Positions 17,053-30,098 of a stretch of DNA of 64,000 bases are shown here, one piece after another; position 1 is the stretch's first letter; each line of letters starts with the position of its first letter. The stretch is from Escherichia phage phiWec179. The translations under genes were made by a program, and so were the position numbers. Under the pieces are notes generated by a model that worked only from the letters and a program-made list of their open reading frames with translations, made no database searches and had not been told where the DNA came from. The stretch lies in sequence record LC739533.1; one strand, written 5' to 3'.

Positions 17053-17056
17053 TCAA

Positions 17057-17476
17057 TTATAACGCTTCATAGATTGAGTAGATCCGGTTTGCCAGGTCAT
17101 TACGAAAGCGGAATTTTTCATCACGTTTAATCATCAGATCCTTAAAACCGCATTCTTTCAAGGCTTCATTAACTTTACTGCGGCATACTTTCATATTGTC
17201 CTGCGCGTCACCAATAAACTTATTGCTATGATGCATTGTTTTGATCTCTTCCTCCAGGACCAGGGCAACTACACGGATCGGATCAAGCTGATACGCGGTA
17301 ACATCCATGCGGCATTGTAAACGGCTTTTAACATCGTTTACCGGATACACTGCAACCTCTTCCCCGTCAACGTTCACAATAACCAGCTTACCATCAATTT
17401 CGAAGCCTTTCGCGGCGCTACCGTGGCAAAAAGCGTTATCGAAGGAGTAAGCCGGATTATTTGATTTAATGTTCAT
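17057..17476 (-). CDS. hypothetical protein
   Basis: ATG at 17476; 139 aa. Confidence 0.5.
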   Translation of the reverse strand: MNIKSNNPAYSFDNAFCHGSAAKGFEIDGKLVIVNVDGEEVAVYPVNDVKSRLQCRMDVTAYQLDPIRVVALVLEEEIKTMHHSNKFIGDAQDNMKVCRSKVNEALKECGFKDLMIKRDEKFRFRNDLANRIYSIYEAL

Positions 17477-17521
17477 GTTGTTGTCCTTTGTTTCGTTTCG
17501 TTGTTTGCTGCCAGTGAGTTA

Positions 17522-17550
17522 AATATAATATAACGCCGATCCCCTGTCAA
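17522..17550 (-). promoter_or_regulatory. sigma70-like promoter
   Basis: minus strand TTGACA-N17-TATATT upstream of 17057..17476. Confidence 0.45.
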
Positions 17551-17585
17551 TAGGCGATAGCGCATTATTTACATTTCTTTACGTT

Positions 17586-17608
17586 AAAGGGCGCTTAGTG
17601 CGCCCCTT
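17586..17608 (-). terminator. intergenic hairpin (terminator-like)
   Basis: AAGGGCGCttagtGCGCCCCTT after stop of 17617..17985. Confidence 0.4.
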
Positions 17609-17616
17609 GTACAATC

Positions 17617-17985
17617 TTACTTTGTGCTGTTGTAAACGTTATCGCGTTCAACCATCAGGGCAAGGCGGATCAGTTGATCAGTTGTATCGCGTAAGCTGTC
17701 AGGCCATGTTTTATTGTTCCAGCTATCTAAATTTGATTGAATATAGGTTTCAATGGCTTGATCCATATTGTCGAACAAGTTTTCCTCCAAGCTCTCGGCT
17801 GTTTCACACTGGAAAGCATCAGCGACACTATTAATCAATAAGCAAGCCAGTAAATCAGCGTTGCGCCAATTTTTACGGATAGTTTCATCTGTCAGATAAC
17901 CAACGAGATTAACCTTTGCGCCAGTGGTGGACGTTGCGATCACTTCTTGCGCTTTTTCAACTGCTTTAATTGCTGATTTGCTCAT
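17617..17985 (-). CDS. hypothetical protein
   Basis: AAAGAGGAAAAG + ATG; 122 aa. Confidence 0.5.
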   Translation of the reverse strand: MSKSAIKAVEKAQEVIATSTTGAKVNLVGYLTDETIRKNWRNADLLACLLINSVADAFQCETAESLEENLFDNMDQAIETYIQSNLDSWNNKTWPDSLRDTTDQLIRLALMVERDNVYNSTK

Positions 17986-18063
17986 CTTCTTTTCCTCTTT
18001 GTGGGCTTGCTGTATTGCTTGCCCTACGCAATAACTATAAGTTAACAGGGTGTATAAAGCAAG

Positions 18064-18297
18064 CTATTTTTTATAAAATTTTTCTGCTGTGATATTCTTC
18101 CCTGTAGGCTTAACCGCTTGCAAGATCTTATCATGTGCCGAACGTCCAAAGGAATAAGATCCGTAAACGGTAAACCAATAATCCCCGTTCGGTTGAACGG
18201 TTACGGCGGCGTATGGTGTGCCTTTTTCATTATCACCAATAAAGTGTGAAACATTGCCGTTAACGTTCGGTTTAGTGCTTTTAATTTGTTCGATCAT
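18064..18297 (-). CDS. hypothetical protein
   Basis: AGGAG + ATG; preceded by cassette 18314..18374. Confidence 0.5.
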   Translation of the reverse strand: MIEQIKSTKPNVNGNVSHFIGDNEKGTPYAAVTVQPNGDYWFTVYGSYSFGRSAHDKILQAVKPTGKNITAEKFYKK

Positions 18298-18313
18298 GAT
18301 GTGACTCCTAAAT

Positions 18314-18374
18314 CAGGCGGGAAACATTCCCGCCCTACGTGATAAATAATAATATAAGGGTGATCCGGTGTCAA
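18314..18374 (-). promoter_or_regulatory. promoter + 5'UTR stem-loop cassette (PeSL-like)
   Basis: minus strand TTGACA-N17-TATTAT, hairpin CGGGAAACATTCCCG, SD, ATG. Confidence 0.55.
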
Positions 18375-18515
18375 TAGGTAGAATTGTAAAGATTTGATAG
18401 TTTATCTCTTTGATGTTTTGTTGTTTGATAGGTGTTAGCTATCAATATATAGCGGGGTCGTCCGGTGATTACCTCCCCCGTTGCCAGTGCCGCCCGTTCA
18501 GTAAGCATAACAAAA

Positions 18516-18545
18516 AACAGGACAAAAACAAGCCCTGTTTTGTAA
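18516..18545 (-). terminator. rho-independent terminator
   Basis: minus strand AACAGGgcttgtttttgtCCTGTT followed by TTTTTTG after stop of 18549..18752. Confidence 0.5.
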
Positions 18546-18548
18546 AGA

Positions 18549-18752
18549 TTAGATGATCTGCATATCCTCCACGATAATTTCTAATTTCCAAACAAGATGA
18601 TCTAAGCTCCCTGATAAAAATGATTCCGATACATAACCGCCATCGGACACCGTAGCAAGGATCTCGCCATTTGCTTGCTCTTTGATTTGAACATCCAGGC
18701 GGTTAGCCTTTGCTTTGTTCAGGACGGCGATCAAGCGGTTAGCTGTAGTCAT
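18549..18752 (-). CDS. hypothetical protein
   Basis: 67 aa; cassette upstream. Confidence 0.45.
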   Translation of the reverse strand: MTTANRLIAVLNKAKANRLDVQIKEQANGEILATVSDGGYVSESFLSGSLDHLVWKLEIIVEDMQII

Positions 18753-18770
18753 GGTGTTTTCCTTCCAGTC

Positions 18771-18830
18771 GTGAGCGGCACCATTGCCGCCCTACGTGAT
18801 ACATCTTACACTATCAGATACATTGTGCAA
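18771..18830 (-). promoter_or_regulatory. promoter + 5'UTR stem-loop cassette (PeSL-like)
   Basis: minus strand TTGCAC-N17-TAAGAT GTATCACGTAGG + hairpin GCGGCAATGGTGCCGC. Confidence 0.6.
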
Positions 18831-18836
18831 GCTATT

Positions 18837-19028
18837 TTAGATCTCGTCACCTATATAATCAGATCTGTTTTTCTCTGTCATACGCTTAAGCAATTCTTGC
18901 ATATGGCTTATAGCTTGCAATGTGTCTTCTTCCAGGCTTGAATCGAGATAATCAGGATCATTCTTTACCTTGCTATGGTTGTGATACCGCAACGCTGCTA
19001 ATACCTTTCTAACTTGTTCTGCATTCAT
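18837..19028 (-). CDS. hypothetical protein
   Basis: AAGGAG + ATG; 63 aa. Confidence 0.45.
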   Translation of the reverse strand: MNAEQVRKVLAALRYHNHSKVKNDPDYLDSSLEEDTLQAISHMQELLKRMTEKNRSDYIGDEI

Positions 19029-19171
19029 TTTTATTACTCCTTAAAACCAGGTGCCAACCGTTTCCAATAAGTCACTGACTACCAGAACAACATTGATTAG
19101 CACATATTTAATCAGGAAGGGGATTAGCGCCAGCGTCGCTACTATGATCCCCATTATGATGATTATTTTTC

Positions 19172-19462
19172 TCATGGTTGGCGGTTTACGTGGGCTTTAC
19201 CGTTTACGGTCATCGGTATGGCCTCAAGGTCTGGATCTTCCTTAAGGTCGCGTGCAAGCTCACCGCACCGGATACCCTCGAATCCGTGGTATTCTGTTTC
19301 CCCGTCCTTAAAAGTTTTAGCGGCAAGGCATAGGCGATAATTAACACCGATCCGGTTTACTGCGTTGATATCGGTTAACGTGATCGATTCCGGCAAATCG
19401 TTAGCCATTACAGGCGCGTTAATACCAACAACCAGGGCAACTACTGCGATCATCTTTTTCAT
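19172..19462 (-). CDS. small secreted protein
   Basis: signal-peptide-like MKKMIAVVALVVGINAPVMA. Confidence 0.5.
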   Translation of the reverse strand: MKKMIAVVALVVGINAPVMANDLPESITLTDINAVNRIGVNYRLCLAAKTFKDGETEYHGFEGIRCGELARDLKEDPDLEAIPMTVNGKAHVNRQP

Positions 19463-19491
19463 GTGTCTATCCTCTTCCTATTGCGTTTAAT

Positions 19492-19508
19492 GGGGGCGTT
19501 GCCGCCCC
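19492..19508 (-). promoter_or_regulatory. 5'UTR GC hairpin (no clear promoter)
   Basis: GGGGCGttgcCGCCCC upstream of 19172..19462. Confidence 0.4.
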
Positions 19509-19517
19509 GCTTATGGT

Positions 19518-19754
19518 TTATTGCTTGATGTTATGATGAAAGTTATTTTCTTCAACGGCTTTTAAAATAAAAGCCGTGATCGCTTTCGTGTCTACTTGTT
19601 CGAACGTATCAGAATAGCACCAATAATAATCATCCCCTACTTTCGGCGGGTAAACCTGGACAAGGAGATCCCCACCATGTTGATCTATAAGCTCAACATG
19701 TAAGCCGGATGATTCAGCGGTTTTAACGGCGTTTAATACTGTTGCAATACTCAT
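19518..19754 (-). CDS. hypothetical protein
   Basis: 78 aa. Confidence 0.45.
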   Translation of the reverse strand: MSIATVLNAVKTAESSGLHVELIDQHGGDLLVQVYPPKVGDDYYWCYSDTFEQVDTKAITAFILKAVEENNFHHNIKQ

Positions 19755-19773
19755 AATCTTTTCCTTTCTGATG

Positions 19774-19789
19774 TGGGGCGTTGCCGCCC
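19774..19789 (-). promoter_or_regulatory. 5'UTR GC hairpin (no promoter)
   Basis: GGGGCGttgcCGCCCC between 19799..20098 and 19518..19754. Confidence 0.4.
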
Positions 19790-19798
19790 CTTTGTTGA

Positions 19799-20098
19799 TT
19801 AGATCGCTGTTTCCAGTAGTTCGGCTAACGTCTTACCGCCTGATAGTTGGTCTAATGTTTGCTCTTCTGGCAAGAAATTAGCTGATATTAAACCGACTTG
19901 ATTCCCTTTGTGCCAGTTAGCCTGGCGGGTGATTCCATCCTTTAAGGATTTTACCGCCATTGTGCAACCGTCGCCAAATGATTCATTTTTATGGTCCATC
20001 ACTTCATAAGCGCCCAGCTTGCTGCTGTTAGGCACCATTAACGCGAATACATCACCAACAACCAGTTTTTCTACGGTAACAATAGCGATAGTTTCCAT
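19799..20098 (-). CDS. hypothetical protein
   Basis: 99 aa; cassette upstream. Confidence 0.5.
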   Translation of the reverse strand: METIAIVTVEKLVVGDVFALMVPNSSKLGAYEVMDHKNESFGDGCTMAVKSLKDGITRQANWHKGNQVGLISANFLPEEQTLDQLSGGKTLAELLETAI

Positions 20099-20116
20099 TT
20101 TGTTTTCCTCATTATC

Positions 20117-20173
20117 GGCGGCACCATTGCCGCCCTACGTGGTAAATATTATCACACTGGCGATCTGTGTCAA
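20117..20173 (-). promoter_or_regulatory. promoter + 5'UTR stem-loop cassette (PeSL-like)
   Basis: TTGACA-N17-TAATAT TTACCACGTAGG + hairpin GGCGGCAATGGTGCCGCC. Confidence 0.6.
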
Positions 20174-20179
20174 TACTTT

Positions 20180-20566
20180 TTATTCAATATAAATCAAATT
20201 ATCTTCACCAATGTAAGCCGACACGTCCGGCATGAATTTAGCGGCATTTGTTAGGCGGTTGGCTGTGTTAGTTGTGTATATTTCAGGGCGATCCCAAAAT
20301 CCTACGCCGTGACCGTTACGGGTAAAATGTAAATCATTGCCGATCTGGTTGGCTGTAGCGCCGTCGCTCATTGCCTCAGAGATAGCGGCAAGATTAGCAT
20401 TAATAAAGGCTGTTACATCTTGGGCGATTCGTTCATCCGCACCAGGAGAAAAATCATAATCGCCTAAGTTATCAATAAAATCACCTTCGTGATCCCTGGC
20501 TGATTCAGCAAAAATAAAAGCCTCTTTATAACCGTTGATGATTTCAATAATGATTTCTGTTTTCAT
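20180..20566 (-). CDS. hypothetical protein
   Basis: 128 aa. Confidence 0.5.
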   Translation of the reverse strand: MKTEIIIEIINGYKEAFIFAESARDHEGDFIDNLGDYDFSPGADERIAQDVTAFINANLAAISEAMSDGATANQIGNDLHFTRNGHGVGFWDRPEIYTTNTANRLTNAAKFMPDVSAYIGEDNLIYIE

Positions 20567-20787
20567 GCTGTACGCTCGACAATAATAATAGTTTGCGGGA
20601 TCTCGTTTTCTACTACTAACAAGGCTTTTTTCTGTGTGATAGATATTTTAACACGTTGTAAAGTAGCGGTAAAGTCTTTCATTTCGTTATGCGCCGACTT
20701 GCTGCAATGCCAGATCTCAGGCTTACCGACTTGTAAGCCGCGTAAAAATTCTGTTTTGCCTGTTTTGTTCGTGATCATCTGTTTCAC
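20563..20787 (-). CDS. hypothetical protein
   Basis: 74 aa. Confidence 0.45.
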   Translation of the reverse strand: MKQMITNKTGKTEFLRGLQVGKPEIWHCSKSAHNEMKDFTATLQRVKISITQKKALLVVENEIPQTIIIVERTA

Positions 20788-20788
20788 C

Positions 20789-20893
20789 TTAACCGATACC
20801 GTGGGAAGATAGGATCATATTAGCCATAGTTGCAACCACTCCAACCGATAACGCCAGGCCAACCACTGCAACCGTGAAAATTTTCTCTAACAT
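20789..20893 (-). CDS. small hydrophobic peptide (34 aa)
   Basis: GAGGG + ATG directly after cassette; MLEKIFTVAVVGLALSVGVVATMANMILSSHGIG; below ORF-track cutoff. Confidence 0.3.
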   Translation of the reverse strand: MLEKIFTVAVVGLALSVGVVATMANMILSSHGIG

Positions 20894-20911
20894 GATGCTA
20901 CCCTCATTAAT

Positions 20912-20974
20912 GGGCGTTGCCTTATTGCCCCGCCCTACAAGATGAATACTACGCGCTTATTTTGCTGTTGTCAA
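20912..20974 (-). promoter_or_regulatory. promoter + 5'UTR stem-loop cassette (PeSL-like, divergent)
   Basis: TTGACA-N17-TAGTAT + GC hairpin. Confidence 0.45.
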
Positions 20975-21139
20975 CAACGGGCGAAAAAACTTTTTGATCT
21001 GGCTTGCTGTTAGGCGCATATCTGCTTTGAGCGTTGCCAGGCGATAAGCTTTACCCTTAACCAGTTTATGGTGTCCGGTGCCGTTGCCGATGATAACATC
21101 AATTTCACACAATACGCGGGAAGCATCAATCTTTTTCAT
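20957..21139 (-). CDS. hypothetical protein
   Basis: 60 aa. Confidence 0.4.
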   Translation of the reverse strand: MKKIDASRVLCEIDVIIGNGTGHHKLVKGKAYRLATLKADMRLTASQIKKFFRPLLTTAK

Positions 21140-21159
21140 GTTGTTACCTTTCGTGTTAT

Positions 21160-21215
21160 GGGGCGCTTGTCGCCCCCTGTCTGATAAAGATAATCCCTTT
21201 CGGGATATCTGTCAA
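21160..21215 (-). promoter_or_regulatory. promoter + 5'UTR stem-loop cassette (PeSL-like)
   Basis: TTGACA-N17-TATCTT + hairpin GGGGCGACAAGCGCCCC. Confidence 0.5.
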
Positions 21216-21221
21216 CTATTT

Positions 21222-21407
21222 TTATTGTACGGTGTGGCGATCGCTGTATTCAGCGTAAAACTCACATCCATCGTCACGGCTATCAAGTTTAACGATGTAC
21301 CCGCTATTCCAACGTTCAACTGATACTACCGGATAATACTTCCCGTTAAGGATATTTTTCACCAGGTCGCCTTTTACCAGTTCTTTCGTTTTCTTATAAG
21401 TAGTCAT
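21222..21407 (-). CDS. hypothetical protein
   Basis: GAGAAAACATC + ATG at 21407 (MTTYKK). Confidence 0.45.
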   Translation of the reverse strand: MTTYKKTKELVKGDLVKNILNGKYYPVVSVERWNSGYIVKLDSRDDGCEFYAEYSDRHTVQ

Positions 21408-21427
21408 GATGTTTTCTCTTCTGTTTT

Positions 21428-21488
21428 GCGGTGGACCGTTCCGCCGCCCTATGTGGTAAACTATACGCGCCAACGTTCCAGGCGTCAA
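21428..21488 (-). promoter_or_regulatory. promoter + 5'UTR stem-loop cassette (PeSL-like)
   Basis: TTGACG-N17-TATAGT TTACCACATAGG + hairpin GCGGCGGAACGGTCCACCGC. Confidence 0.55.
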
Positions 21489-21606
21489 GCATATTTTTAA
21501 AATTATTTTCTACAACGTAAAACGCCCCAGCATAAGCCAGGGCGCACTAATTAAATCAGGTAGGGGGATTGCATTGCCTTACACCTTTTAGGCTGTTAGC
21601 TGGCGA

Positions 21607-21834
21607 TTAATAGCGTAGGATGTTTACACGCTCATCCCGCCCCAAGATATCCTCATATCTGTTTCCCCTTCCTTCGTACCAGATGATCACGGTATGAGGA
21701 TCAAACGGATTGTTTTCGATAGCCGTTACCTTGCAGAAGTCATAAGACGGGAACGGATAAACGCCAACCTGTAAACGCGCCCGATCTCCTGGGCGAATGG
21801 TAGCGGCACGATCTGCAATGATATTGTTATACAT
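21607..21834 (-). CDS. hypothetical protein
   Basis: 75 aa. Confidence 0.45.
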   Translation of the reverse strand: MYNNIIADRAATIRPGDRARLQVGVYPFPSYDFCKVTAIENNPFDPHTVIIWYEGRGNRYEDILGRDERVNILRY

Positions 21835-21958
21835 GGTGCACCCCCTTAATATTTTTCTTTTTCTTTGCTTCCGTTCGTCTAAGGTTACGGCTTGACTTGT
21901 TACGCAAGGCGCTCAAATCATCATAACCTTTAAAAGGTTGCATATTGTTCGGATTCAT
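21827..21958 (-). CDS. small basic protein (start uncertain)
   Basis: AAGGGG + ATG at 21958; Lys/Arg-rich C-terminus. Confidence 0.3.
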   Translation of the reverse strand: MNPNNMQPFKGYDDLSALRNKSSRNLRRTEAKKKKNIKGVHHV

Positions 21959-21968
21959 GCTACGCCCC

Positions 21969-22247
21969 TTAACGGTTATAGATATTGTGGATAGTGATAA
22001 AGGCGCTACGGTCATAAGCTGCCAAATCGGGATTGATCCAAGTGTTATCTAATAGTGTTTCAAGGATAATAGACTCATCATGAATAGCATCATAGAAATC
22101 AGGGTTAATAATGGTGTCAATGTCGCTTTCTGTTAACTCTACATTCAGCTTGCAAACCGCTTGCAAATCGGCTTCACGCTTCCAATCTTGCAGATTAGTA
22201 GTCAGAATGTTGGTGATCTCTTCGGTAGATAATTTGGTGATGGTCAT
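21969..22247 (-). CDS. hypothetical protein
   Basis: 92 aa; cassette upstream. Confidence 0.5.
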   Translation of the reverse strand: MTITKLSTEEITNILTTNLQDWKREADLQAVCKLNVELTESDIDTIINPDFYDAIHDESIILETLLDNTWINPDLAAYDRSAFITIHNIYNR

Positions 22248-22265
22248 GATATTTTCTCTCTGTTA

Positions 22266-22323
22266 GGCGGGGCGCTTGTCGCCCCTATGTGATACATCTT
22301 ATCAGGTTGATTCAGCTTGTCAA
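22266..22323 (-). promoter_or_regulatory. promoter + 5'UTR stem-loop cassette (PeSL-like)
   Basis: TTGACA-N17-TAAGAT GTATCACATAGG + hairpin GGCGACAAGCGCCCCGCC. Confidence 0.6.
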
Positions 22324-22329
22324 TACTTT

Positions 22330-22536
22330 TTAACGTGTCGCGTAAATAATATTACTTGCCGGACTACTGCAAACCAGGTTAAGCGGCTTGCTGTTATATT
22401 GCATCTTGTCGGCTTGTTTGCTTGCTGCGATGATTCCATCTATTACACGTTGCAAACTAACCTTTACCGCCTTTTTTGCCAACCGTTGACGCTTTACCAG
22501 TGCCTGGATCTTTTTCTTGTCTGCGTTGCTTAACAT
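22330..22536 (-). CDS. hypothetical protein
   Basis: 68 aa. Confidence 0.45.
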   Translation of the reverse strand: MLSNADKKKIQALVKRQRLAKKAVKVSLQRVIDGIIAASKQADKMQYNSKPLNLVCSSPASNIIYATR

Positions 22537-22545
22537 GGTGCGCCC

Positions 22546-22725
22546 TTACTTGTTAGCCGGATTGTATGCCAGGATCGCGCCGCTTGCTTTCACGCTTTCA
22601 TCTTCATAGTTGCGCAGATCGTTTTCTGTAAGATTGAGCGCGATCACTTCCTCGATCTCAATGCCAGTGGCAAGGGCGATCTCTTTAATGATGTTTGATG
22701 ATCTGATAACGTTTACTGTTTTCAT
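22546..22725 (-). CDS. hypothetical protein
   Basis: AAGGTG + ATG at 22725 (MKTVNVIRSS). Confidence 0.4.
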   Translation of the reverse strand: MKTVNVIRSSNIIKEIALATGIEIEEVIALNLTENDLRNYEDESVKASGAILAYNPANK

Positions 22726-22735
22726 GGTGTGCACC

Positions 22736-22855
22736 TTATAAGATGATTGATAAGATAGTGATAACGAAAGCGATAACACCAACGGCGATCGTAGTCTTAC
22801 GCCCTTCGGATACTGCCGGATTCTCTACCGTGTATTCTACTGTGTATTTGTTCAT
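22736..22855 (-). CDS. small membrane peptide (39 aa)
   Basis: GAGAGGATAACACA + ATG; hydrophobic C-terminus IAVGVIAFVITILSIIL; below ORF-track cutoff. Confidence 0.3.
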   Translation of the reverse strand: MNKYTVEYTVENPAVSEGRKTTIAVGVIAFVITILSIIL

Positions 22856-22878
22856 TGTGTTATCCTCTCGCTTGCTTT

Positions 22879-22935
22879 GAGAACTATTCCCGCCGCCCTA
22901 TGAATTAAATATACACTATCCCAAAATGATTGCAA
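22879..22935 (-). promoter_or_regulatory. promoter + 5'UTR structured cassette (divergent)
   Basis: TTGCAA-N17-ATATTT AATTCATAGGGCGGCGGG. Confidence 0.4.
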
Positions 22936-22954
22936 GCCTTTTTCTAAATTATTT

Positions 22955-23239
22955 TTATGCAGTAAACAGACCATCATTTACAACGGCGGCGATGATCTCC
23001 CGTGCCATTGATTCAGGGAACGGGGCGCTATAGTCCTGGCTTGTCTCGTCGCTGTCTGTTACCCAATGATAAGCCAACGAGTAAAAGCCTTTACTCCCTG
23101 TTTTCAGTGAAACGATGATCACTCGGTTAAGTCCATCGGTAAACGTTGCCGTTAATGTGTTATCATCTTGCGTCATGTTGGACAAGTAAGCGGCATCATT
23201 AACCAGGGAAAACAGTAGCACCGTGTTAGCTTTAACCAT
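22955..23239 (-). CDS. hypothetical protein
   Basis: GAGGAT + ATG at 23239 (MVKANTVLLF). Confidence 0.45.
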   Translation of the reverse strand: MVKANTVLLFSLVNDAAYLSNMTQDDNTLTATFTDGLNRVIIVSLKTGSKGFYSLAYHWVTDSDETSQDYSAPFPESMAREIIAAVVNDGLFTA

Positions 23240-23258
23240 GATTTGATCCTCAAACGGG

Positions 23259-23310
23259 CGCGGCACCATTGCCGCCCTACGTAATACACTTTACCTTATT
23301 TCTTCCAAAA
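23259..23310 (-). promoter_or_regulatory. promoter + 5'UTR stem-loop cassette (PeSL-like)
   Basis: TAAAGT -10, GTATTACGTAGG + hairpin GCGGCAATGGTGCCGC; -35 weak, overlaps upstream gene end. Confidence 0.45.
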
Positions 23311-23496
23311 AGCAAGTTTATTTGCAATTGGTGACAAATAACGTTTACCCGCGTAAAACAGTACAGCGACACTAACCACGGCGGCGATCTCATGCATAGC
23401 CGACGGGAAACGAGTATCATAATAAGATCCAATAATAGCAATAGCGGCAACGGCTGCAACGTCGATAATGATTTTTTCTTGTTTTGCGGTGATCAT
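23296..23496 (-). CDS. small membrane protein
   Basis: hydrophobic VAAVAAIAIIGSYY and VVSVAVLFYAG. Confidence 0.45.
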   Translation of the reverse strand: MITAKQEKIIIDVAAVAAIAIIGSYYDTRFPSAMHEIAAVVSVAVLFYAGKRYLSPIANKLAFWKK

Positions 23497-23516
23497 AATA
23501 TTTACCTTTTTGTATG

Positions 23517-23578
23517 GTGGGGGGAACTATTCCCCGCCCTGATGTAATACAGTTTAACAGATCCGGTTATAGTGTCAA
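23517..23578 (-). promoter_or_regulatory. promoter + 5'UTR stem-loop cassette (PeSL-like)
   Basis: TTGACA-N17-TAAACT GTATTACATCAGGGCGG + hairpin GGGAATAGTTCCCC. Confidence 0.55.
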
Positions 23579-23584
23579 CCACTT

Positions 23585-23770
23585 TTAAAGATATTTTATA
23601 CTGATAACATTTTCCGGTTTAACCTGGTTGTGATAAGCATCAATGTAAATCAAACCATCGTTAGAAACGCCCAGGATCACGCCTTGCGCAATAAAACCGT
23701 ATCGGTCGCGGTAACGTGCCGCCACTTTGTTCGCTGCGTTGTAGGCTGTTTTAATCTCGTTTAAGGTCAT
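23585..23770 (-). CDS. hypothetical protein
   Basis: 61 aa. Confidence 0.45.
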   Translation of the reverse strand: MTLNEIKTAYNAANKVAARYRDRYGFIAQGVILGVSNDGLIYIDAYHNQVKPENVISIKYL

Positions 23771-23797
23771 GTGCTGTTATCCTCTCGTTAGATATAA

Positions 23798-23828
23798 GAA
23801 AGGGCGCTATTTGCGCCCTTGATTTGTT
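23798..23828 (-). terminator. intergenic hairpin (terminator/attenuator-like)
   Basis: AAGGGCGCtatttGCGCCCTT, same motif family as 17023 and 17588. Confidence 0.4.
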
Positions 23829-23975
23829 TTAGTCTTCCAGGTCCATCCATGCACGTTTCTCGGTGCGGTCGCGCTTAGTTTTGTTGCGCTTGTCGCCCTT
23901 GCGGATCACTTCTTCATTCCACGCTGCGCGTGTTTTAGAAGATTGGATTTTTTCGGCGCGATTAGATGTATTCAT
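23829..23975 (-). CDS. small basic protein (48 aa)
   Basis: GAGGAAACATC + ATG after cassette; MNTSNRAEKIQSSKTRAAW...; below ORF-track cutoff. Confidence 0.35.
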   Translation of the reverse strand: MNTSNRAEKIQSSKTRAAWNEEVIRKGDKRNKTKRDRTEKRAWMDLED

Positions 23976-23995
23976 GATGTTTCCTCTTTTTAGTT

Positions 23996-24056
23996 GTGAG
24001 CGGCACCATTGCCGCCCTACGTGTTTTAATTTACTTTATTGTTTGATGCCTGTCAA
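23996..24056 (-). promoter_or_regulatory. promoter + 5'UTR stem-loop cassette (PeSL-like)
   Basis: TTGACA-N17-TAAATT + hairpin GCGGCAATGGTGCCGC. Confidence 0.55.
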
Positions 24057-24073
24057 CTACTTTTAAAAACTTT

Positions 24074-24427
24074 TTATTCGTGGGAAAGTGTAAGGATCAC
24101 ACCTGCAATATATAACCAATAGTTTTCCCTTTCTTTCTGGATCTTGTTTTCGCTACTACGCTCGTTAATGTACCCCCAGGATGTTAACAACCGATCTACT
24201 TCCCAATACTCGAAAGCTATATTAATATTTGACGGTAAACCTTGTAACCATGATGCTATTGCTCTGATAATGTTATGATCGTAACGTTTTTGATTATCGG
24301 TGTACCAATATTCAGATTTAAAACAGCGCATCAATTCCGCGATCTTCTCTTTCTCTTCTGTGATGCCATACTCGCTATAATCAATTGAGGCCAGAATATA
24401 AAGTTTAATTGCATTTTGTGCTTTCAT
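24074..24427 (-). CDS. hypothetical protein
   Basis: 117 aa; cassette upstream. Confidence 0.5.
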   Translation of the reverse strand: MKAQNAIKLYILASIDYSEYGITEEKEKIAELMRCFKSEYWYTDNQKRYDHNIIRAIASWLQGLPSNINIAFEYWEVDRLLTSWGYINERSSENKIQKERENYWLYIAGVILTLSHE

Positions 24428-24444
24428 GGTGTCTCTCTTCTGTT

Positions 24445-24504
24445 GTGAGCGGCACCATTGCCGCCCTATGTGTTACATCTTACCGGATTTTTAAAACTTG
24501 TCAA
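24445..24504 (-). promoter_or_regulatory. promoter + 5'UTR stem-loop cassette (PeSL-like)
   Basis: TTGACA-N17-TAAGAT GTAACACATAGG + hairpin GCGGCAATGGTGCCGC. Confidence 0.6.
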
Positions 24505-24726
24505 TCATTTTTCTACTATCATTTGATAACCTGTTTCAAGGTTAGTAAACACCGTGATCCCGTCCTGGCGTTCACTCATAAGCAAGCAAGGCGCTAACAT
24601 CCTTCCTACTTCCTTGCACTCGTTATAAGCGGCGGTAATGTCTCCCGCTGCTTTGTCTTCTGTGGTGAATGTATCGTTTACGTAAACTTTACCAGCGACA
24701 ACGGCGACAATAGCAAAAGTGATCAT
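24505..24726 (-). CDS. hypothetical protein
   Basis: GAGGAAAACATC + ATG at 24726 (MITFAIVAV). Confidence 0.45.
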   Translation of the reverse strand: MITFAIVAVVAGKVYVNDTFTTEDKAAGDITAAYNECKEVGRMLAPCLLMSERQDGITVFTNLETGYQMIVEK

Positions 24727-24804
24727 GATGTTTTCCTCTTTGTGTTTTTCGTTTTGATTAGTTGATAATACAGCAATTCGCAGATTAGTCTTTAGCAATT
24801 CATG

Positions 24805-25023
24805 CTATTTACTCACAACAGTATCGAAAACAAATTTTTCTTTGTTGTCGAAGCTAACATATCCGATTCGACCACGCAAGCCGCCAGTAGTGCCGTATTC
24901 GTAACCATCAAGGCCTTTAACCTTCCAATCCGTACCCATTAAAACCGCATTATATTTCTGACCAACTACAAACGCGCCACCAGTTGATTCAATGCAAACA
25001 ACTTTAATTTTACGGATTGCCAT
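24805..25023 (-). CDS. hypothetical protein
   Basis: 72 aa. Confidence 0.45.
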   Translation of the reverse strand: MAIRKIKVVCIESTGGAFVVGQKYNAVLMGTDWKVKGLDGYEYGTTGGLRGRIGYVSFDNKEKFVFDTVVSK

Positions 25024-25101
25024 TTTCTTTCTCTCTTTGTGGTGATTGGTTTCTCTTCTCTATAGCGCCCATTATAAGGCGCTATAACGAAAAGTCAACG
25101 A

Positions 25102-25269
25102 TTATTTTTTACGGCTTAAGGTGCCCAAGTTATCAGCGTGACGCAGACCAGGGAAGATCCAAGCGCCGGATTCATCTTTTACAGGTGCCTTAACACTTGC
25201 GCCCAGGTTGGCGGCGTTAACTTTACGTGCTACGTTGCGAGCGGCTTCACGGGTAGTAAAAGTAATCAT
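25102..25269 (-). CDS. small protein (55 aa)
   Basis: GAGGAAAACATC + ATG (MITFTTREAARNV...), same initiation module as 24505..24726; below ORF-track cutoff. Confidence 0.35.
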   Translation of the reverse strand: MITFTTREAARNVARKVNAANLGASVKAPVKDESGAWIFPGLRHADNLGTLSRKK

Positions 25270-25293
25270 GATGTTTTCCTCTTCTCTTTGTTA

Positions 25294-25355
25294 GGCGGTG
25301 GACCATTCCGCCGCCTTGATGTAATACAGTTTACTCTATTTTTATTTCTTTGCAA
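25294..25355 (-). promoter_or_regulatory. promoter + 5'UTR stem-loop cassette (PeSL-like)
   Basis: TTGCAA-N17-TAAACT GTATTACATCAAGG + hairpin CGGCGGAATGGTCCACCGCC. Confidence 0.55.
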
Positions 25356-25500
25356 CTACTTTTATATTTTCTTTCTTTGCCTCTTCCACCTGGTCCGCCC
25401 ACTGCTTACCCCACGTTTGAGCGTTATAGTGATATTGACAAAGAGCAACACCACGTTTTAAACCAGCGATAGACTTTTTACCACATTGACAAGTTTTCAT
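25345..25500 (-). CDS. small Cys-containing protein (51 aa, tentative)
   Basis: ATG at 25500 (MKTCQCGKKS...); weak SD; 3' end overlaps cassette. Confidence 0.25.
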
Positions 25501-25511
25501 TTTGTGATCCC

Positions 25512-25724
25512 TTAGTTGATGATAGTCAGTGTAAAATTATAATCACCATTCTTATATAACACCATATTACCGAAGGTGCCGACTCGACGCATATCCATAC
25601 GGATACCTATAACATCTTTAACGTCTTTAATGTTTTTAACGCCCGTGATATCTTTATTAAAATATTCCTCGTCTGAAAATAAAACTTGACTTGCATTTTT
25701 TAACAGTGTGCGGATATTAGCCAT
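25512..25724 (-). CDS. hypothetical protein
   Basis: 70 aa; cassette upstream. Confidence 0.45.
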   Translation of the reverse strand: MANIRTLLKNASQVLFSDEEYFNKDITGVKNIKDVKDVIGIRMDMRRVGTFGNMVLYKNGDYNFTLTIIN

Positions 25725-25745
25725 CGTGATAATCTCTCTTCTGTT

Positions 25746-25805
25746 GTGAGCGGCACCATTGCCGCCCTACGTAATACAGTTTACTCTTTTTCTTTCCGGT
25801 GTCAA
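25746..25805 (-). promoter_or_regulatory. promoter + 5'UTR stem-loop cassette (PeSL-like)
   Basis: TTGACA-N17-TAAACT GTATTACGTAGG + hairpin GCGGCAATGGTGCCGC. Confidence 0.6.
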
Positions 25806-25813
25806 CAATCTTT

Positions 25814-26041
25814 TTAGATTAATTCGTCCAGGCATAACAGGCGATCAACGTTGAGATCGGTCAGGCTGATGGTTGGCACCTGATAAGATTCGATGTACTC
25901 GACGCTTGCATATTCCCCAAAGTTAGCAATAGCCCACTTATTCAAGATCTCACATACATCATTAATCTTTTTGTTTGTTACAACTGCAATAACCTGGGAA
26001 GTGCCAACGGTGCCGGATACGCGAACAATATTGATAGCCAT
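25814..26041 (-). CDS. hypothetical protein
   Basis: 75 aa; cassette upstream. Confidence 0.45.
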   Translation of the reverse strand: MAINIVRVSGTVGTSQVIAVVTNKKINDVCEILNKWAIANFGEYASVEYIESYQVPTISLTDLNVDRLLCLDELI

Positions 26042-26061
26042 GATTTTTCTCTCTTCTGTTA

Positions 26062-26119
26062 GGCGGGGCGCTTGTCGCCCCTATGTGATACATCTTACAC
26101 TAATTTAAAACTTTGTCAA
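26062..26119 (-). promoter_or_regulatory. promoter + 5'UTR stem-loop cassette (PeSL-like)
   Basis: TTGACA-N17-TAAGAT GTATCACATAGG + hairpin GGCGACAAGCGCCCCGCC. Confidence 0.6.
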
Positions 26120-26214
26120 ATTATTTTCTATTTCTTCCGTAATAGCCCAATTTATGATCTAAGCTAAAACGTTTTGTGAGATAGGTCGAACGATGTTTCA
26201 TTTTTATGTCTCCT

Positions 26215-26454
26215 TTACATTCCAACCATAGCGGCGCGGATCGCGGTAGTGCTATACTTGAAACCGTCTGGAGTTTTATCTTGTCCAGTCTGTTCCAGAA
26301 AGAGCATCATATCACGCGCCGCATCGTTACGGTTAGAATTATAACTAATAAATTCTTTCGCGGTGCGGTATAATGATTCATCGTTATTAATCCAAAGGCT
26401 TACATTCCAATGAGTTTTGTTTTTGTGACCTAAGAACATTTTTGATTTAGCCAT
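26215..26454 (-). CDS. hypothetical protein
   Basis: 79 aa; cassette upstream. Confidence 0.45.
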   Translation of the reverse strand: MAKSKMFLGHKNKTHWNVSLWINNDESLYRTAKEFISYNSNRNDAARDMMLFLEQTGQDKTPDGFKYSTTAIRAAMVGM

Positions 26455-26475
26455 GATGTTAATCTCTTTTTCAGT

Positions 26476-26537
26476 GAGGCGGGAACTATTCCCGCGCCCT
26501 ATGTAATACAGTTTACTCTTTTTATTCGTGCTGTCAA
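26476..26537 (-). promoter_or_regulatory. promoter + 5'UTR stem-loop cassette (PeSL-like)
   Basis: TTGACA-N17-TAAACT GTATTACATAGG + hairpin CGGGAATAGTTCCCGCC. Confidence 0.55.
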
Positions 26538-26543
26538 TGCTTT

Positions 26544-26897
26544 TTATAAATCTTTTTTACGTTTTACATCGCTTGCATGACTGTATACAGCGATCCCATT
26601 ATCACGACAAAAACGGGTAAGGTATGATCCGCGTGAAAACTCTTTCCCTTCCAGGTCAACAACCTTGCTAAATTCTTCCAGGGCAACGGTATCAAAATGA
26701 TCACCATAACCATATTGAAACGGCACGTTAACAACTTCAATCAATTTACCGCCGATCTCAACGTCCACGCTTAAAGAAAAATATGTGTTACCGTAGGACT
26801 GTTGAAACCAGCGACGGGCGCTAATGTGAACGGCTTCAATCTCACCAATTTTAAATTGAGTGTTACCCAGGATCGCAACGTTGATATTTTTAGCCAT
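26544..26897 (-). CDS. hypothetical protein
   Basis: 117 aa; cassette upstream. Confidence 0.5.
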   Translation of the reverse strand: MAKNINVAILGNTQFKIGEIEAVHISARRWFQQSYGNTYFSLSVDVEIGGKLIEVVNVPFQYGYGDHFDTVALEEFSKVVDLEGKEFSRGSYLTRFCRDNGIAVYSHASDVKRKKDL

Positions 26898-26920
26898 GAT
26901 TTTTTCTCTCTTTTTGGTTA

Positions 26921-26974
26921 GTGGGAAGTGTTCCCGATAAAAGTTATTATGCTTATACTATCGTTTTTTGTCAA
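26921..26974 (-). promoter_or_regulatory. promoter + 5'UTR stem-loop cassette (divergent)
   Basis: TTGACA-N18-ATAATA + hairpin GGGAACACTTCCC. Confidence 0.45.
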
Positions 26975-26993
26975 TAGTATAAGACTAAAACTT

Positions 26994-27173
26994 TTAACGA
27001 TAATCATCGTAGGCTTTATTAACCTGGCGAATATAACATTCGAAAGCGAGATCAATAGAATCATATTCCCGCACATAATCCCCGTAAGAAACTACATACA
27101 CACCTTTTTGATCCTCAAACGTCATGATGATAGAATCCAGGCCGATGATTTCAGTTTTAGCGATGATAGTCAT
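26994..27173 (-). CDS. small protein (59 aa)
   Basis: ATG at 27173 after cassette (MTIIAKTEIIGLD...); below ORF-track cutoff. Confidence 0.35.
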   Translation of the reverse strand: MTIIAKTEIIGLDSIIMTFEDQKGVYVVSYGDYVREYDSIDLAFECYIRQVNKAYDDYR

Positions 27174-27194
27174 AATAATAACCTTTTTATTGTT

Positions 27195-27251
27195 GGCGGC
27201 ACCATTGCCGCCCTACGTGATAAACTATACCAGAATTTTAAACAGTGTCAA
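27195..27251 (-). promoter_or_regulatory. promoter + 5'UTR stem-loop cassette (PeSL-like)
   Basis: TTGACA-N17-TATAGT TTATCACGTAGG + hairpin GGCGGCAATGGTGCCGCC. Confidence 0.6.
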
Positions 27252-27261
27252 ACGTTTTTTC

Positions 27262-27507
27262 TTAGTTTGCGAAATATGGCGCGGCGGCTGATGCCGTTAA
27301 TCTCCAAGTGATTTGGCTATCGATCAAGTATTCTTCATTCTTGATCCGCACGGTATCAATCGAGAAGTTACTGAAAGGCTTGCTCTTGATTTTACGAACA
27401 ACCGTTACACGACGGTTATTTTTCATCTCTTTTAACTGAATCCAGGCGTAACCTTTTTCATTGACAAATATTTCATTGTGATTGGTGATAGATGATAAGT
27501 GTTTCAT
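27262..27507 (-). CDS. hypothetical protein
   Basis: 81 aa; cassette upstream. Confidence 0.45.
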   Translation of the reverse strand: MKHLSSITNHNEIFVNEKGYAWIQLKEMKNNRRVTVVRKIKSKPFSNFSIDTVRIKNEEYLIDSQITWRLTASAAAPYFAN

Positions 27508-27528
27508 GATTTTTCTCTCTTCTGTTTT

Positions 27529-27590
27529 GAGCGGTGGACCATTCCGCCGCCCTATGTGTTACATCTTACTACTTTTTTAAACATTGTCAA
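27529..27590 (-). promoter_or_regulatory. promoter + 5'UTR stem-loop cassette (PeSL-like)
   Basis: TTGACA-N17-TAAGAT GTAACACATAGG + hairpin GGCGGCGGAATGGTCCACCGC. Confidence 0.6.
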
Positions 27591-27598
27591 GGATATTT

Positions 27599-27880
27599 TT
27601 AACTATATGATCCACATCGTTCGCAGTAGTGATCATCGTCGTCATCTGCTACCTGGCTGATAAAATGATCTACCTTTGCTTTCAAATTATTATAATTGCT
27701 TTCTACTTCCTGTAGTCGTCGTTGGTAGTATTCCAGGGCTTGCACATAGGCCATTTGTTCGGTTTTAGCTTGCATAGCTAAATTCATGCCACGCGTTTCA
27801 TCGTATAACCAATAACCATCATTACATTCACTAATAGATAGTGTAGGGCTTAGTTTTTCGTGACGGATAACCTTGCTCAT
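27599..27880 (-). CDS. hypothetical protein
   Basis: 93 aa; C-terminal CERCGS. Confidence 0.45.
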   Translation of the reverse strand: MSKVIRHEKLSPTLSISECNDGYWLYDETRGMNLAMQAKTEQMAYVQALEYYQRRLQEVESNYNNLKAKVDHFISQVADDDDDHYCERCGSYS

Positions 27881-27890
27881 AGTGTGCCCC

Positions 27891-28001
27891 TTACTTCAAA
27901 ATGATTGTTGTGATAACTGCTACGGTGATCCAGAATGGAACAACTAAGATAATAGCGTTAATCGTTCCAACTGTCAAACTATTTTCTTTCTTGATCATCA
28001 T
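27891..28001 (-). CDS. small membrane peptide (36 aa)
   Basis: AAGGAAAAC + ATGATG; hydrophobic GTINAIILVVPFWITVAVITTIILK. Confidence 0.35.
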   Translation of the reverse strand: MMIKKENSLTVGTINAIILVVPFWITVAVITTIILK

Positions 28002-28008
28002 GTTTTCC

Positions 28009-28092
28009 TTACAGTGTCCAAAGAATGATTTCAAGTGCAGCACGGAAACCAGGAATAAAATTGATTGCAAAAAACAGGGAAGTAGTAAACAT
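28009..28092 (-). CDS. tiny hydrophobic peptide (27 aa, tentative)
   Basis: AAAGGA + ATG right after cassette; MFTTSLFFAINFIPGFRAALEIILWTL. Confidence 0.25.
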   Translation of the reverse strand: MFTTSLFFAINFIPGFRAALEIILWTL

Positions 28093-28110
28093 TTTTCTAT
28101 CCTTTCAGTT

Positions 28111-28170
28111 GTGAGCGGCACCATTGCCGCCTGATGAGTTAACTATAAGGGATCACGTTTTACCTGTCAA
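28111..28170 (-). promoter_or_regulatory. promoter + 5'UTR stem-loop cassette (PeSL-like)
   Basis: TTGACA-N17-TATAGT TAACTCATCAGG + hairpin CGGCAATGGTGCCG. Confidence 0.55.
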
Positions 28171-28724
28171 CCTAAATCATCAAAATAAAGATAATTTTTT
28201 TCGGCTTCTTTCTTCTCTTCCTGTGATGCCTCAAAGACTGGGAGAAAGTGATCAAAGGCGACGCACTCAACCGCTTGATCGTCTTCCTCTTCCTGGTCTT
28301 CCTCCTGGGCTATGGCTGCAATTTTGGCTAATTTCCTTTCAGCCTGGATCAGCTTACCATCTAAAACGCTTTTAGCGGTGCTGTACGCCGTCCAAGTGAT
28401 GCGCTTACTTTCCAGCGCGGCATCAAGCGCCGCTATCTTGCTGGGGTATTCATCCAGGACACGAAAAGCCGGATCTACCTTGTACAGCGGATTATCTTTC
28501 GCGCCGTCGCTATCATCTGCGGCGCTTGCAATGTCAGCGTTACCATTCGCCAGCCAACCAGGGCGATCGCTGCGTGTTTTGGTATTCCCATGACTACGCG
28601 CCGATCTGTTGCCTACTTGCTCGCCACTATAGCCAGGAGCATGATCGATCATGTCGTCCGGTATAATGCGCGGATCATTAACGTCATGTTTTACCCAGGA
28701 CTGGATCACATATTCGCGCCCCAT
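28167..28724 (-). CDS. hypothetical acidic protein
   Basis: 185 aa; higher GC than neighbours; EEDQEEEDDQ tract. Confidence 0.5.
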   Translation of the reverse strand: MGREYVIQSWVKHDVNDPRIIPDDMIDHAPGYSGEQVGNRSARSHGNTKTRSDRPGWLANGNADIASAADDSDGAKDNPLYKVDPAFRVLDEYPSKIAALDAALESKRITWTAYSTAKSVLDGKLIQAERKLAKIAAIAQEEDQEEEDDQAVECVAFDHFLPVFEASQEEKKEAEKNYLYFDDLG

Positions 28725-28984
28725 TATACACCCCTTTTAACAATCATTTCACACACAAGAAATAAGCTGGCGGAATCACGGCAAGGATAGAAAGATGTAC
28801 GATAATCTCTCACCCCTGCTTTTATGATCTCCGTGGTTTTACCTGATAGCACATTGTAAATAGTGTAACTTGTCGGACTGTTTTTATATACCTTGCCAGG
28901 GTAGATCATAACATAACGAGCAAGGTTATAAAATTCCTCGTTACGAAAGGCTATGATCTTCCCGCATACCTTAAGAAAGTGCAC
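28724..28984 (-). CDS. hypothetical protein
   Basis: 86 aa. Confidence 0.45.
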   Translation of the reverse strand: MHFLKVCGKIIAFRNEEFYNLARYVMIYPGKVYKNSPTSYTIYNVLSGKTTEIIKAGVRDYRTSFYPCRDSASLFLVCEMIVKRGV

Positions 28985-28994
28985 GTTAGCCCCC

Positions 28995-29267
28995 TTACAG
29001 CAAAAAGTTTACTTGTCTTGCTGTTAATGTAGTATCAACCATTTTCGGGCTTTTATAATTGACAAAACGCGCGGTTTTTTCAATAGCGAAGCCGAGATAA
29101 TCTTGTTTGTTGAAATTACATTCTTTCTTAAATGTTTCCCGTGCAATGGCGATCGCTGCGTCCAGGGATAAACGCCCGTCAATATTGATATTTGCGAAAG
29201 ATCCGCCACCGCTCATAGGTTTACCAGTGGTGCCCGTTACGATCATTGTTGCGCTATATGATGCCAT
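28995..29267 (-). CDS. hypothetical protein
   Basis: AGAGATTATCATC + ATG at 29267 (MASYSATMIV). Confidence 0.45.
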   Translation of the reverse strand: MASYSATMIVTGTTGKPMSGGGSFANINIDGRLSLDAAIAIARETFKKECNFNKQDYLGFAIEKTARFVNYKSPKMVDTTLTARQVNFLL

Positions 29268-29287
29268 GATGATAATCTCTCTTAGTT

Positions 29288-29351
29288 GTGAGCGGTGGAC
29301 CATTCCGCCGCTCTACGTGATACATCTTATCAGGTTGTTGCCTGTTGTCAA
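29288..29351 (-). promoter_or_regulatory. promoter + 5'UTR stem-loop cassette (PeSL-like)
   Basis: TTGACA-N17-TAAGAT GTATCACGTAGAG + hairpin CGGCGGAATGGTCCACCGC. Confidence 0.6.
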
Positions 29352-29357
29352 TACTTT

Positions 29358-29555
29358 TTATTCAAGCCCTACGATATGTAAGACACGGCGATTAGCAATA
29401 GCGTGCTGGTCTTCTGTTATAACGCCCATTTCTACCAGTGAATCAAGAAAGGAAAGCACCGTGATATATTCGTCATCGGGTACACTCATTTCATTAGTAC
29501 CGTTTACCACTACGTTGATTTGTCCTGCTTTCGCTACAATGTGCAATGTTGCCAT
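29358..29555 (-). CDS. hypothetical protein
   Basis: 65 aa; long GC-rich leader upstream. Confidence 0.45.
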   Translation of the reverse strand: MATLHIVAKAGQINVVVNGTNEMSVPDDEYITVLSFLDSLVEMGVITEDQHAIANRRVLHIVGLE

Positions 29556-30096: not shown

Positions 30097-30098
30097 TC

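Follow-up and report, generated by a model that had tools for sequence, protein, structure and literature searches.

A repeated promoter-hairpin cassette in the terminal small-gene array of Escherichia phage phiWec179 and its probable role in gene expression and recombination

Escherichia phage phiWec179 carries, within the 64,000-nucleotide stretch analyzed here (LC739533.1; the window), an array of small minus-strand genes in which a cassette of about 90 bp recurs 21 times, each copy joining a sigma-70-like promoter to a short conserved box, a G+C-rich hairpin and a leader that runs to a start codon. We think it reasonably likely that this cassette is a portable early-expression unit that doubles as a recombination module, with the hairpin protecting the 5' end of the message and insulating the ribosome-binding site. 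The promoter part of this explanation is well supported at the level of sequence, as is the proposal that recombination between cassettes underlies the insertions, deletions and replacements of gene units among related phages. Early expression would follow from the promoter consensus, and a stabilizing role is suggested by the position of the hairpin, read together with general knowledge of mRNA decay in E. coli.

Cassette copies were called by a regular-expression scan together with direct reading of the minus strand and are named by the position at which their -35 element starts (Table 1). Each begins at the stop codon of the preceding gene and proceeds through an A-tract, TTGACA, a spacer of 16-17 bp, TAnnnT, the box, the hairpin and the leader to ATG. 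The alignment consensus reads ATAAAAAnnnTTGACA, 16-17 nucleotides (nt), GTAAnAT and GTATCACATAGGGCGGnCAATGGTnCCnCnCACAACAGAAAAGAnAAnATCATG, with AGAAAAGAnAAnATCATG at the 3' end. The -35 element is exactly TTGACA in 16 of the 21 copies, with TAnnnT 16-17 bp downstream, and the box, AYCAC-R-TAGGGCGG, lies directly 5' of the hairpin. In all 22 copies of the window (the 22nd standing outside the array) the hairpin starts 10-12 nt after the -10 element, and it is followed by a purine-rich leader of 17-23 nt that is predicted to be unpaired. A covariance model, specified by hand and built from eight type-A copies, gave 159 matches in the window and ten related arrays; 95% of these have TAnnnT immediately upstream, 88% also have a -35 element at 16-17 bp, and the eighth nucleotide after the -10 element is a purine in 154 (81 G, 73 A). 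Because this conserved purine resembles a transcription start, we take it as the predicted start, which would leave about 3 unpaired nt 5' of the stem and place the hairpin at about +3/+4 of the predicted transcript.

The 21 cassettes with box and hairpin in the array all lie between 17983 and 29361 on the minus strand. With at most one mismatch allowed, the box ACRTAGGGCGG has 13 occurrences where 0.64 would be expected, every one of them on the minus strand and inside the array, and sigma-70-like sites scoring at least 10/12 number 21 on the sense strand and 2 on the antisense strand, against 2.6 ± 1.6 in Markov simulations. The looser pattern TAGGGCGG with one mismatch was uninformative (30 matches against 20 expected), and it is the longer box that is decisive. 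The covariance model recovers 18 of the array copies and the lone copy at 52736(+), and it has zero matches in the other 91.5 kb of the related phage phiWec181. A scan of 16000-31000 with Rfam 15 gave two chance-level matches only (E = 0.1 and 0.29). No host counterpart of the cassette was found in a search of E. coli genomes, and the cassette is therefore not derived from a host repeat.

These results refine a first-pass annotation of the same DNA. The repeated minus-strand module of about 90 bp that it described was recovered by the scan, by direct reading and by the covariance model; the count of at least 22 copies in the array becomes 21, with one more outside it. The 17-bp spacer that it reported holds for some copies, but most have 16 bp (101 against 39 across relatives). 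It had placed a cassette before almost every gene, where we find one before only 21 of about 42, about half, and the MITF start said to be shared by several genes is common to just two (24726 and 25269; families D9/D10), the proteins being otherwise unrelated.

The hairpin has a G+C-rich stem of 7-10 bp and folds in 21 of the 22 copies, the exception being c22933, at -8 to -16 kcal/mol with a mean of about -13. Between 41 and 48 distinct hairpin sequences occur among the model matches, and the two arms co-vary. Swapping 3' arms between variants, a test that needs no alignment, weakens the mean minimum free energy from -12.4 to -9.0 ± 0.36 kcal/mol (z = -9.7; 0/300 permutations). In the model alignment the share of paired cells is 94.5%, compared with 88.5% after shuffling (0/500), cells with a double change number 41 against 13 expected, and at pair 7 of the stem 47 sequences have CG and 30 have GC. 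The alignment figures are to be read as indicative rather than as probabilities, the alignment having been fitted to the structure and the copies being related. RNAalifold, applied to a MAFFT alignment of the 5'-untranslated regions (5'-UTRs), returned no structure; the hairpins vary in length, and MAFFT misaligns their 3' arms. As RNA, the element is more stable on the sense than on the antisense strand in 64 of 81 variants (p = 1e-6), which favors a role at the RNA level. The layout also occurs in other phages, with about 16 such units in phi92, where the hairpin sequences differ, and several in FV3 (Vequintavirus, Vequintavirinae), where quite different stems occupy the same position. Processing by RNase III was considered and rejected, stems of this length being too short.

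The phage is, by sequence, a phAPEC8-like E. coli myophage of the Stephanstirmvirinae and not a T4-type phage. In BLAST searches the 12.6-kb region matched 299 phage records, the best being Escherichia phage phiWec181, at 97.4% identity over 97% of the region; Phapecoctavirus members come next, Schickermooser for example with 89% over 76%. The genomes closest to the region belong to Phapecoctavirus, Justusliebigvirus and Vequintavirus; coverage of the array reaches at least 80% in just 2 of the 299 records, and no T4-like record was among the BLAST matches to the cassette. Records labeled as Campylobacter, Pseudomonas and Acinetobacter phages (for example MG065650, OR584014 and OP562383) also match this coliphage group, and their host labels look doubtful; identity is about 89-93% for array segments of these records and about 98% for the cassette, with a core identity of 96% for PsgM04F and 79% for B15.

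The 329-bp direct terminal repeat of Schickermooser maps by homology to 15818-16149 of the window, and position 15818 matches the end of the right terminal repeat of phi92. The phi92 record lists the equivalent genes as 225-248 and shows, beyond them, 1.1 kb of non-coding DNA and then the annotated right terminal repeat. From this mapping and the phi92 gene order we conclude that the array forms the final ~13 kb of the virion chromosome, with transcription running toward the chromosome end. About 1.5 kb around the repeat equivalent is without an annotated gene in the phiWec181 record.

Comparison with relatives ties the cassettes to gene exchange. When the array was compared by BLAST with ten related arrays, 59 of the 144 internal end points fell in cassettes, whose share of the array is 19% (p = 7.5e-10), and most of the others fell at gene junctions. 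Gene order is not identical among relatives, as expected from the earlier suggestion that genes are swapped: the recurrent differences are gains or losses of exactly one or a few gene-plus-cassette units, alongside replacements, and chimeric cassettes stand at the crossovers. Three chimeric junctions could be resolved at the nucleotide level. In a three-way alignment, c20173 consists of the promoter half of one Schickermooser cassette and the leader half of the next, with the crossover inside GTAGGGCGGCAATGGTGCCGC, and a 63-amino-acid (aa) gene is missing from the window at this junction. A single cassette of ESCO25 joins window copies c26537 and c25354 within GAGTAAACTGTATTACAT, the window having 1.1 kb extra between them, and a cassette of phAPEC8 is a finer mosaic of c27590 and c26119. 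The mapped crossovers lie inside the box/hairpin or the -10/box. Shared array segments (17000-29600) are 88-90% identical to typical Phapecoctavirus, whereas the core (38000-50600) is about 79% identical, which indicates exchange between lineages. It is the variable array, rather than the core, that is the more similar part between the window and typical Phapecoctavirus.

A mechanism can be proposed from these features. The A-tract and near-consensus sigma-70 promoter would be used by unmodified host RNA polymerase, transcription most likely starting at the conserved purine, so that the mRNA would begin with about 3 free nt followed directly by the hairpin. Beyond it, about 20 nt of unstructured, purine-rich leader containing a weak Shine-Dalgarno (SD) sequence would lead to the AUG. 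The hairpin would most likely act as a 5'-terminal protective stem-loop that slows the 5'-end-dependent decay carried out by RppH and RNase E, and it would also insulate the ribosome-binding region from read-through RNA arriving from upstream, the outcome being uniform expression of short ORFan messages. About 20 near-identical cassettes in direct orientation would, in addition, allow homologous recombination to delete, duplicate and exchange gene-plus-cassette units, giving rise to the hyperplastic array and to exchange between phage lineages.

Several points weigh against this account. Selection for intact genes would by itself be expected to leave breakpoints at gene boundaries, and about half of the breakpoints lie at non-cassette junctions. 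The permutation statistics overstate the independence of the hairpin copies, which are related. Type-B stems contain a C.A mismatch whose antisense counterpart would be a G.U pair (plus-strand match at 27531). Consensus promoters at 7309, 4749, 3020 and 779 on the minus strand lack a hairpin and are followed by a short AAGGAGAGA leader; that at 7309 retains an TACCACAT box. A literature search found no 5'-end mapping, RNA half-life or expression data for this phage group. Finally, the unpaired box AYCACRUAG and the AAUGGU/AAUAGU loop are conserved beyond what a stabilizer would need, which hints at a sequence-specific partner.

Such a partner is the substance of one alternative, in which box and hairpin form an RNA recognition site through which a phage or host protein acts jointly on these early messages, either in a shut-off resembling that of T4 RegA/RegB or in the processing of read-through RNA. 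We regard this as unlikely. The box AYCACRTAGGGCGG is indeed conserved in sequence and not in structure alone, AAUGGU and AAUAGU are frequent among the loops, and the element is restricted to one co-regulated block and one other gene. However, the loops comprise at least 17 sequences and the stems several families, the predicted start site overlaps with the box, whose conservation may thus serve the promoter, and no candidate protein is seen among the array proteins, which have no known domains.

Another possibility, to our minds rather unlikely, is that the hairpin is an attenuator or terminator like that of the promoter early stem-loop (PeSL) cassettes of T4-type phages, and either limits upstream read-through or holds its own gene low until a phage factor intervenes. 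With a PeSL stem-loop inserted between a promoter and lacZ, expression fell as far as with a strong terminator (PMC2839356), the cassette hairpins are G+C-rich and stable, and insulation would be useful with strong promoters in tandem every ~300-600 bp. Yet the fixed place of the hairpin relative to the -10 element means that it must be transcribed from its own promoter, and at +3/+4 a terminator would end its own transcript. No U-tract was found after the cassette hairpins on the sense strand, where the sequence that follows is CACAACAGAAGAGAGA; the terminator-like calls on that strand (21545, 23820, 17043, 18541 and 21206) include no cassette hairpin, and proper U-tract terminators occur elsewhere in the array (Table 1). 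We read the cassette hairpin as a probable 5'-UTR element that is unlikely to be a terminator.

It is also conceivable, if only as a slim chance, that box and hairpin are a dedicated cis-signal for a phage factor, serving at the RNA level as a joint switch of about 20 host-takeover genes and at the level of folded single-stranded DNA in an integron-like capture of small genes and their shuffling between lineages. We keep this reading because the box and the AAUGGU loop are over-conserved, one crossover lies in the hairpin, and the array is more similar between phages than the core. A recombination signal acting purely on DNA, in which an enzyme would recognize a folded single strand or cruciform as it does attC and the RNA hairpin would be a by-product, seems quite improbable. 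One crossover does lie inside the box/hairpin (c20173), promoter-less hairpins bound the insertion or deletion of a unit (19508/19771), the sequence varies under a constant structure, as it does in attC, and PeSL mini-circles are known in T4-type phages (PMC2839356); but other crossovers lie in the -10/box or at SD junctions, and exchange therefore follows the longest shared identity, not the hairpin itself. Such a signal would also leave the fixed distance to the promoter unexplained and sits poorly with the greater stability of the sense RNA, and no recombinase is known nearby, an integrase search not having been made beyond the array. Very improbable, finally, is a phage-specific promoter or DNA operator in the 20-mer that spans box and hairpin, for although the phAPEC8 record marks it as a promoter and an inverted repeat at a promoter occupies the usual place of an operator, the repeat always stands at a fixed distance from a complete sigma-70 promoter, it changes in sequence with complementarity kept where a protein-DNA site would keep its sequence, its sense and antisense strands differ in stability, and PHIRE reports over-represented 20-mers, not promoter activity.

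Table 1. Positions of the cassettes and of other features of the array region in the window.
Feature	Position	Strand	Description
c29351	29265-29361	-	TTGACA-16-TAAGAT, box, hairpin GAGCGGCGGAATGGTCCACCGCTC, leader, ATG of 102-aa gene
c28170	28090-28180	-	Degenerate box, hairpin GGCGGCAATGGTGCCGCT; before 27-aa hydrophobic open reading frame (ORF)
c27590	27505-27600	-	Cassette
c27251	27171-27261	-	Cassette
c26537	26452-26547	-	Hairpin GGGCGCGGGAATAGTTCCCGCCTC
c26119	26039-26129	-	Hairpin GGGGCGACAAGCGCCCC
c25805	25722-25815	-	Query of the distribution searches
c25354	25267-25364	-	-35 TTGCAA; before an MITF... gene
c24504	24425-24514	-	Cassette
c24056	23973-24066	-	Cassette
c23578	23494-23588	-	Cassette
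c23316	23237-23326	-	Weak -35 TTGCTT
c22933	22853-22943	-	Box intact; 3' arm of hairpin decayed
c22323	22245-22333	-	Cassette
c21488	21405-21498	-	Cassette
c21215	21137-21225	-	Degenerate box, hairpin GGGGCGACAAGCGCCCC
c20974	20891-20984	-	Hairpin GGGCGGGGCAATAAGGCAACGCCC
c20173	20096-20183	-	Chimera of two Schickermooser cassettes flanking gene _00286
c18830	18750-18840	-	-35 TTGCAC
c18374	18295-18384	-	Cassette
c18062	17983-18072	-	Hairpin GGGCAAGCAATACAGCAAGCCC
Lone cassette outside the array	52698-52788	+	-35 at 52708; precedes 324-aa multi-pass membrane protein
First array promoter	29556-29730	-	TTGACG-17-TAGTAT; ~130-nt leader, no box or hairpin; 6-codon mini-ORF (GGAGG..ATGCAGGACGGGCAAAGGTGA)
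Promoter module without box	26895-26985	-	Different hairpin GGGAACACTTCCC; from regular-expression scan
Promoter module without box or hairpin	25021-25108	-	TTGACT-16-TATAAT; end point of a gene-unit insertion/deletion
Promoter module without hairpin	17477-17560	-	TTGACA-17-TATATT; before last array gene
Two promoter-less hairpin and leader modules	19463-19800	-	GGGGCGGCAACGCCCC at 19493-19508 and 19775-19790; flank 78-aa gene
Intrinsic-terminator-like hairpins with T-tract	23800-23820, 21522-21545, 18514-18541, 17023-17043	-	Schickermooser record annotates terminators at corresponding sites
Array of ~42 small ORFs	17057-29555	-	From ORF list; all open
Short direct terminal repeat equivalent	15818-16149	.	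Physical genome end; by homology, phi92 annotation and PMC6563267

The genes served by the array have little in common beyond their size. The ORFs encode 27-185 aa (median 71 aa), and the proteins are mutually unrelated, with no BLASTP pair below 1e-3. Pfam had no match for 28 of the 30 array proteins tested, the 10 compared with PHROGs all fall in different families of unknown function, and the matching genes in the records of relatives are all annotated as hypothetical. Besides those behind a cassette, 5 more genes have other promoter modules, and the remainder have compact stop/SD/start junctions of the TAAGGGGCACACCATG type. A second repeated junction, TAAGG(G/T)G..CAC(C/T)ATG, packs stop, SD and start into 13-17 nt and occurs on the minus strand at 28997, 27893, 22738, 21971, 21848, 20791 and 25514; it is at these sites that most recombination end points outside the cassettes fall.

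The modules that depart from the full cassette are shared with relatives in part. The leader of the first array gene (29556-29690) is conserved in phi92, and its 6-codon mini-ORF may encode a leader peptide. The unit of the 78-aa gene between the two promoter-less modules is absent from ETEC-TG and KKP_3264, with the junction in the hairpin, and at phi92 site 17536 the leader of these modules stands behind a full promoter. The protein encoded behind the lone plus-strand cassette (52786-53760) looks TerC-like by eye.

Upstream of the array, an 89-aa gene (MTTTTLHLMHSLGWQGG..., 29830-30096, plus strand) is divergent from it and is directly followed by a strong promoter-like site, TTGACA-17-TATACT, at 30099 (+) and then by a GC-rich stretch; a structured RNA in that stretch (30134-30345) was considered and rejected (z = -0.16). 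The 1.3-kb non-coding region here contains, at 30355-30466 (+), four 21-bp palindromes AAATGAGAAnnATTCTCATTT spaced 23-40 bp apart, which look like an operator or iteron, and a 62-nt direct repeat (30478-30539 and 30617-30678; 84% identical). The palindrome core TGAGAATCATTCTCA is one symmetric change from TGATAATnATTATCA, the 7-1-7 reading of a Fur box. A search for tRNA genes found none.

If the cassette is indeed an expression unit that doubles as a recombination module, the PeSL idea, in which repeated regulatory cassettes express orphan genes and supply homology for their shuffling, would extend beyond T4-type phages to the phAPEC8-, phi92- and rV5-like coliphages, which are widely used in therapy collections, and the terminal region being the most variable part of these genomes would be accounted for. 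The database annotation "PHIRE promoter" would be corrected. A naturally standardized expression part, made up of promoter, 5' hairpin and open leader and placed before about 20 unrelated genes, would also offer a test bed for the effects of 5' hairpins on mRNA life and translation, and the cassette would provide a handle for finding and expressing unknown host-takeover or anti-defense genes.

Parts of this arrangement have counterparts in known systems. Integron cassettes consist of a promoter-less ORF with attC and require the IntI integrase. The array resembles them in that small ORFs are bounded by imperfect inverted repeats whose structure is kept better than their sequence and in that whole units are gained or lost; it differs in that every unit comes with a promoter of its own and that exchange resembles ordinary homologous recombination. 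The Bacillus phage SPO1 reportedly has a host-takeover module of about two dozen very small genes in a 13-kb terminal repeat, comparable to the array in its small genes of unknown function at a genome end and its many strong host-type early promoters. The SPO1 module lies within that repeat, whereas here the repeat is of about 330 bp and the array adjoins it, and we know of no conserved 5'-UTR hairpin described for SPO1. The 5'-UTR of E. coli ompA mRNA is said to carry a 5'-terminal stabilizing stem-loop, and the cassette likewise places a stable hairpin a few nt from the predicted 5' end, with an open ribosome-binding region behind it. Unlike in ompA, about 20 copies of the hairpin serve as a standard part before unrelated genes, and the 5' end is a predicted one.

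The repeat itself was noticed in 2012 but read as a promoter. In the phAPEC8 record (JX561091; Tsonos et al., 2012), the segment from -35 to -10 is marked "host dependent promoter (MEME)" and the 20-mer of box and hairpin, ATAGGGCGGCAATGGTGCCG, "putative promoter determined with PHIRE"; the same element is thus read as a second promoter, with no mention of a hairpin, of a 5'-UTR position or of gene shuffling. To judge from its place behind the -10 element, the 20-mer is a transcribed hairpin and the PHIRE annotation is wrong. A literature search found no open paper with the motif or a description of the cassette, only a generic promoter list in the rV5 paper and the PeSL papers. Likenesses of the box to a lambda operator half-site (TATCAC), a DnaA box, Chi and the T4 MotA box (TTGCTT at some -35 elements) were dropped as matches of 5-6 nt each.

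The closest parallel is with the PeSL cassettes of RB49/phi1, PST and nt-1 (Arbiol et al., 2010, PMC2839356; Comeau et al., 2014, PMC4122927), to which the first-pass annotation had likened the module, a comparison that stands in part. PeSL are defined by an upstream stop codon in an A/T-rich stretch, a sigma-70 consensus promoter, a stable stem-loop, an SD sequence and a start codon (PMC2839356), and all of these are present here in the same composite intergenic arrangement. The phage group is different, being Stephanstirmvirinae with the array at the genome terminus, and so is the place of the stem-loop, which in T4-type PeSL takes five variable positions in or around the promoter (PMC2839356) and here a single fixed 5'-UTR site preceded by a conserved box. 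T4-type stem-loops act as terminators or attenuators, whereas the absence of a U-tract makes a terminator role unlikely for the phiWec179 hairpins. What the two systems share is their location and its outcome: in both, the copies cluster in an ORFan-rich hyperplastic region, 21 of 22 falling within 12.5 kb here, and recombination between them leads to insertion, deletion and replacement of ORFans.

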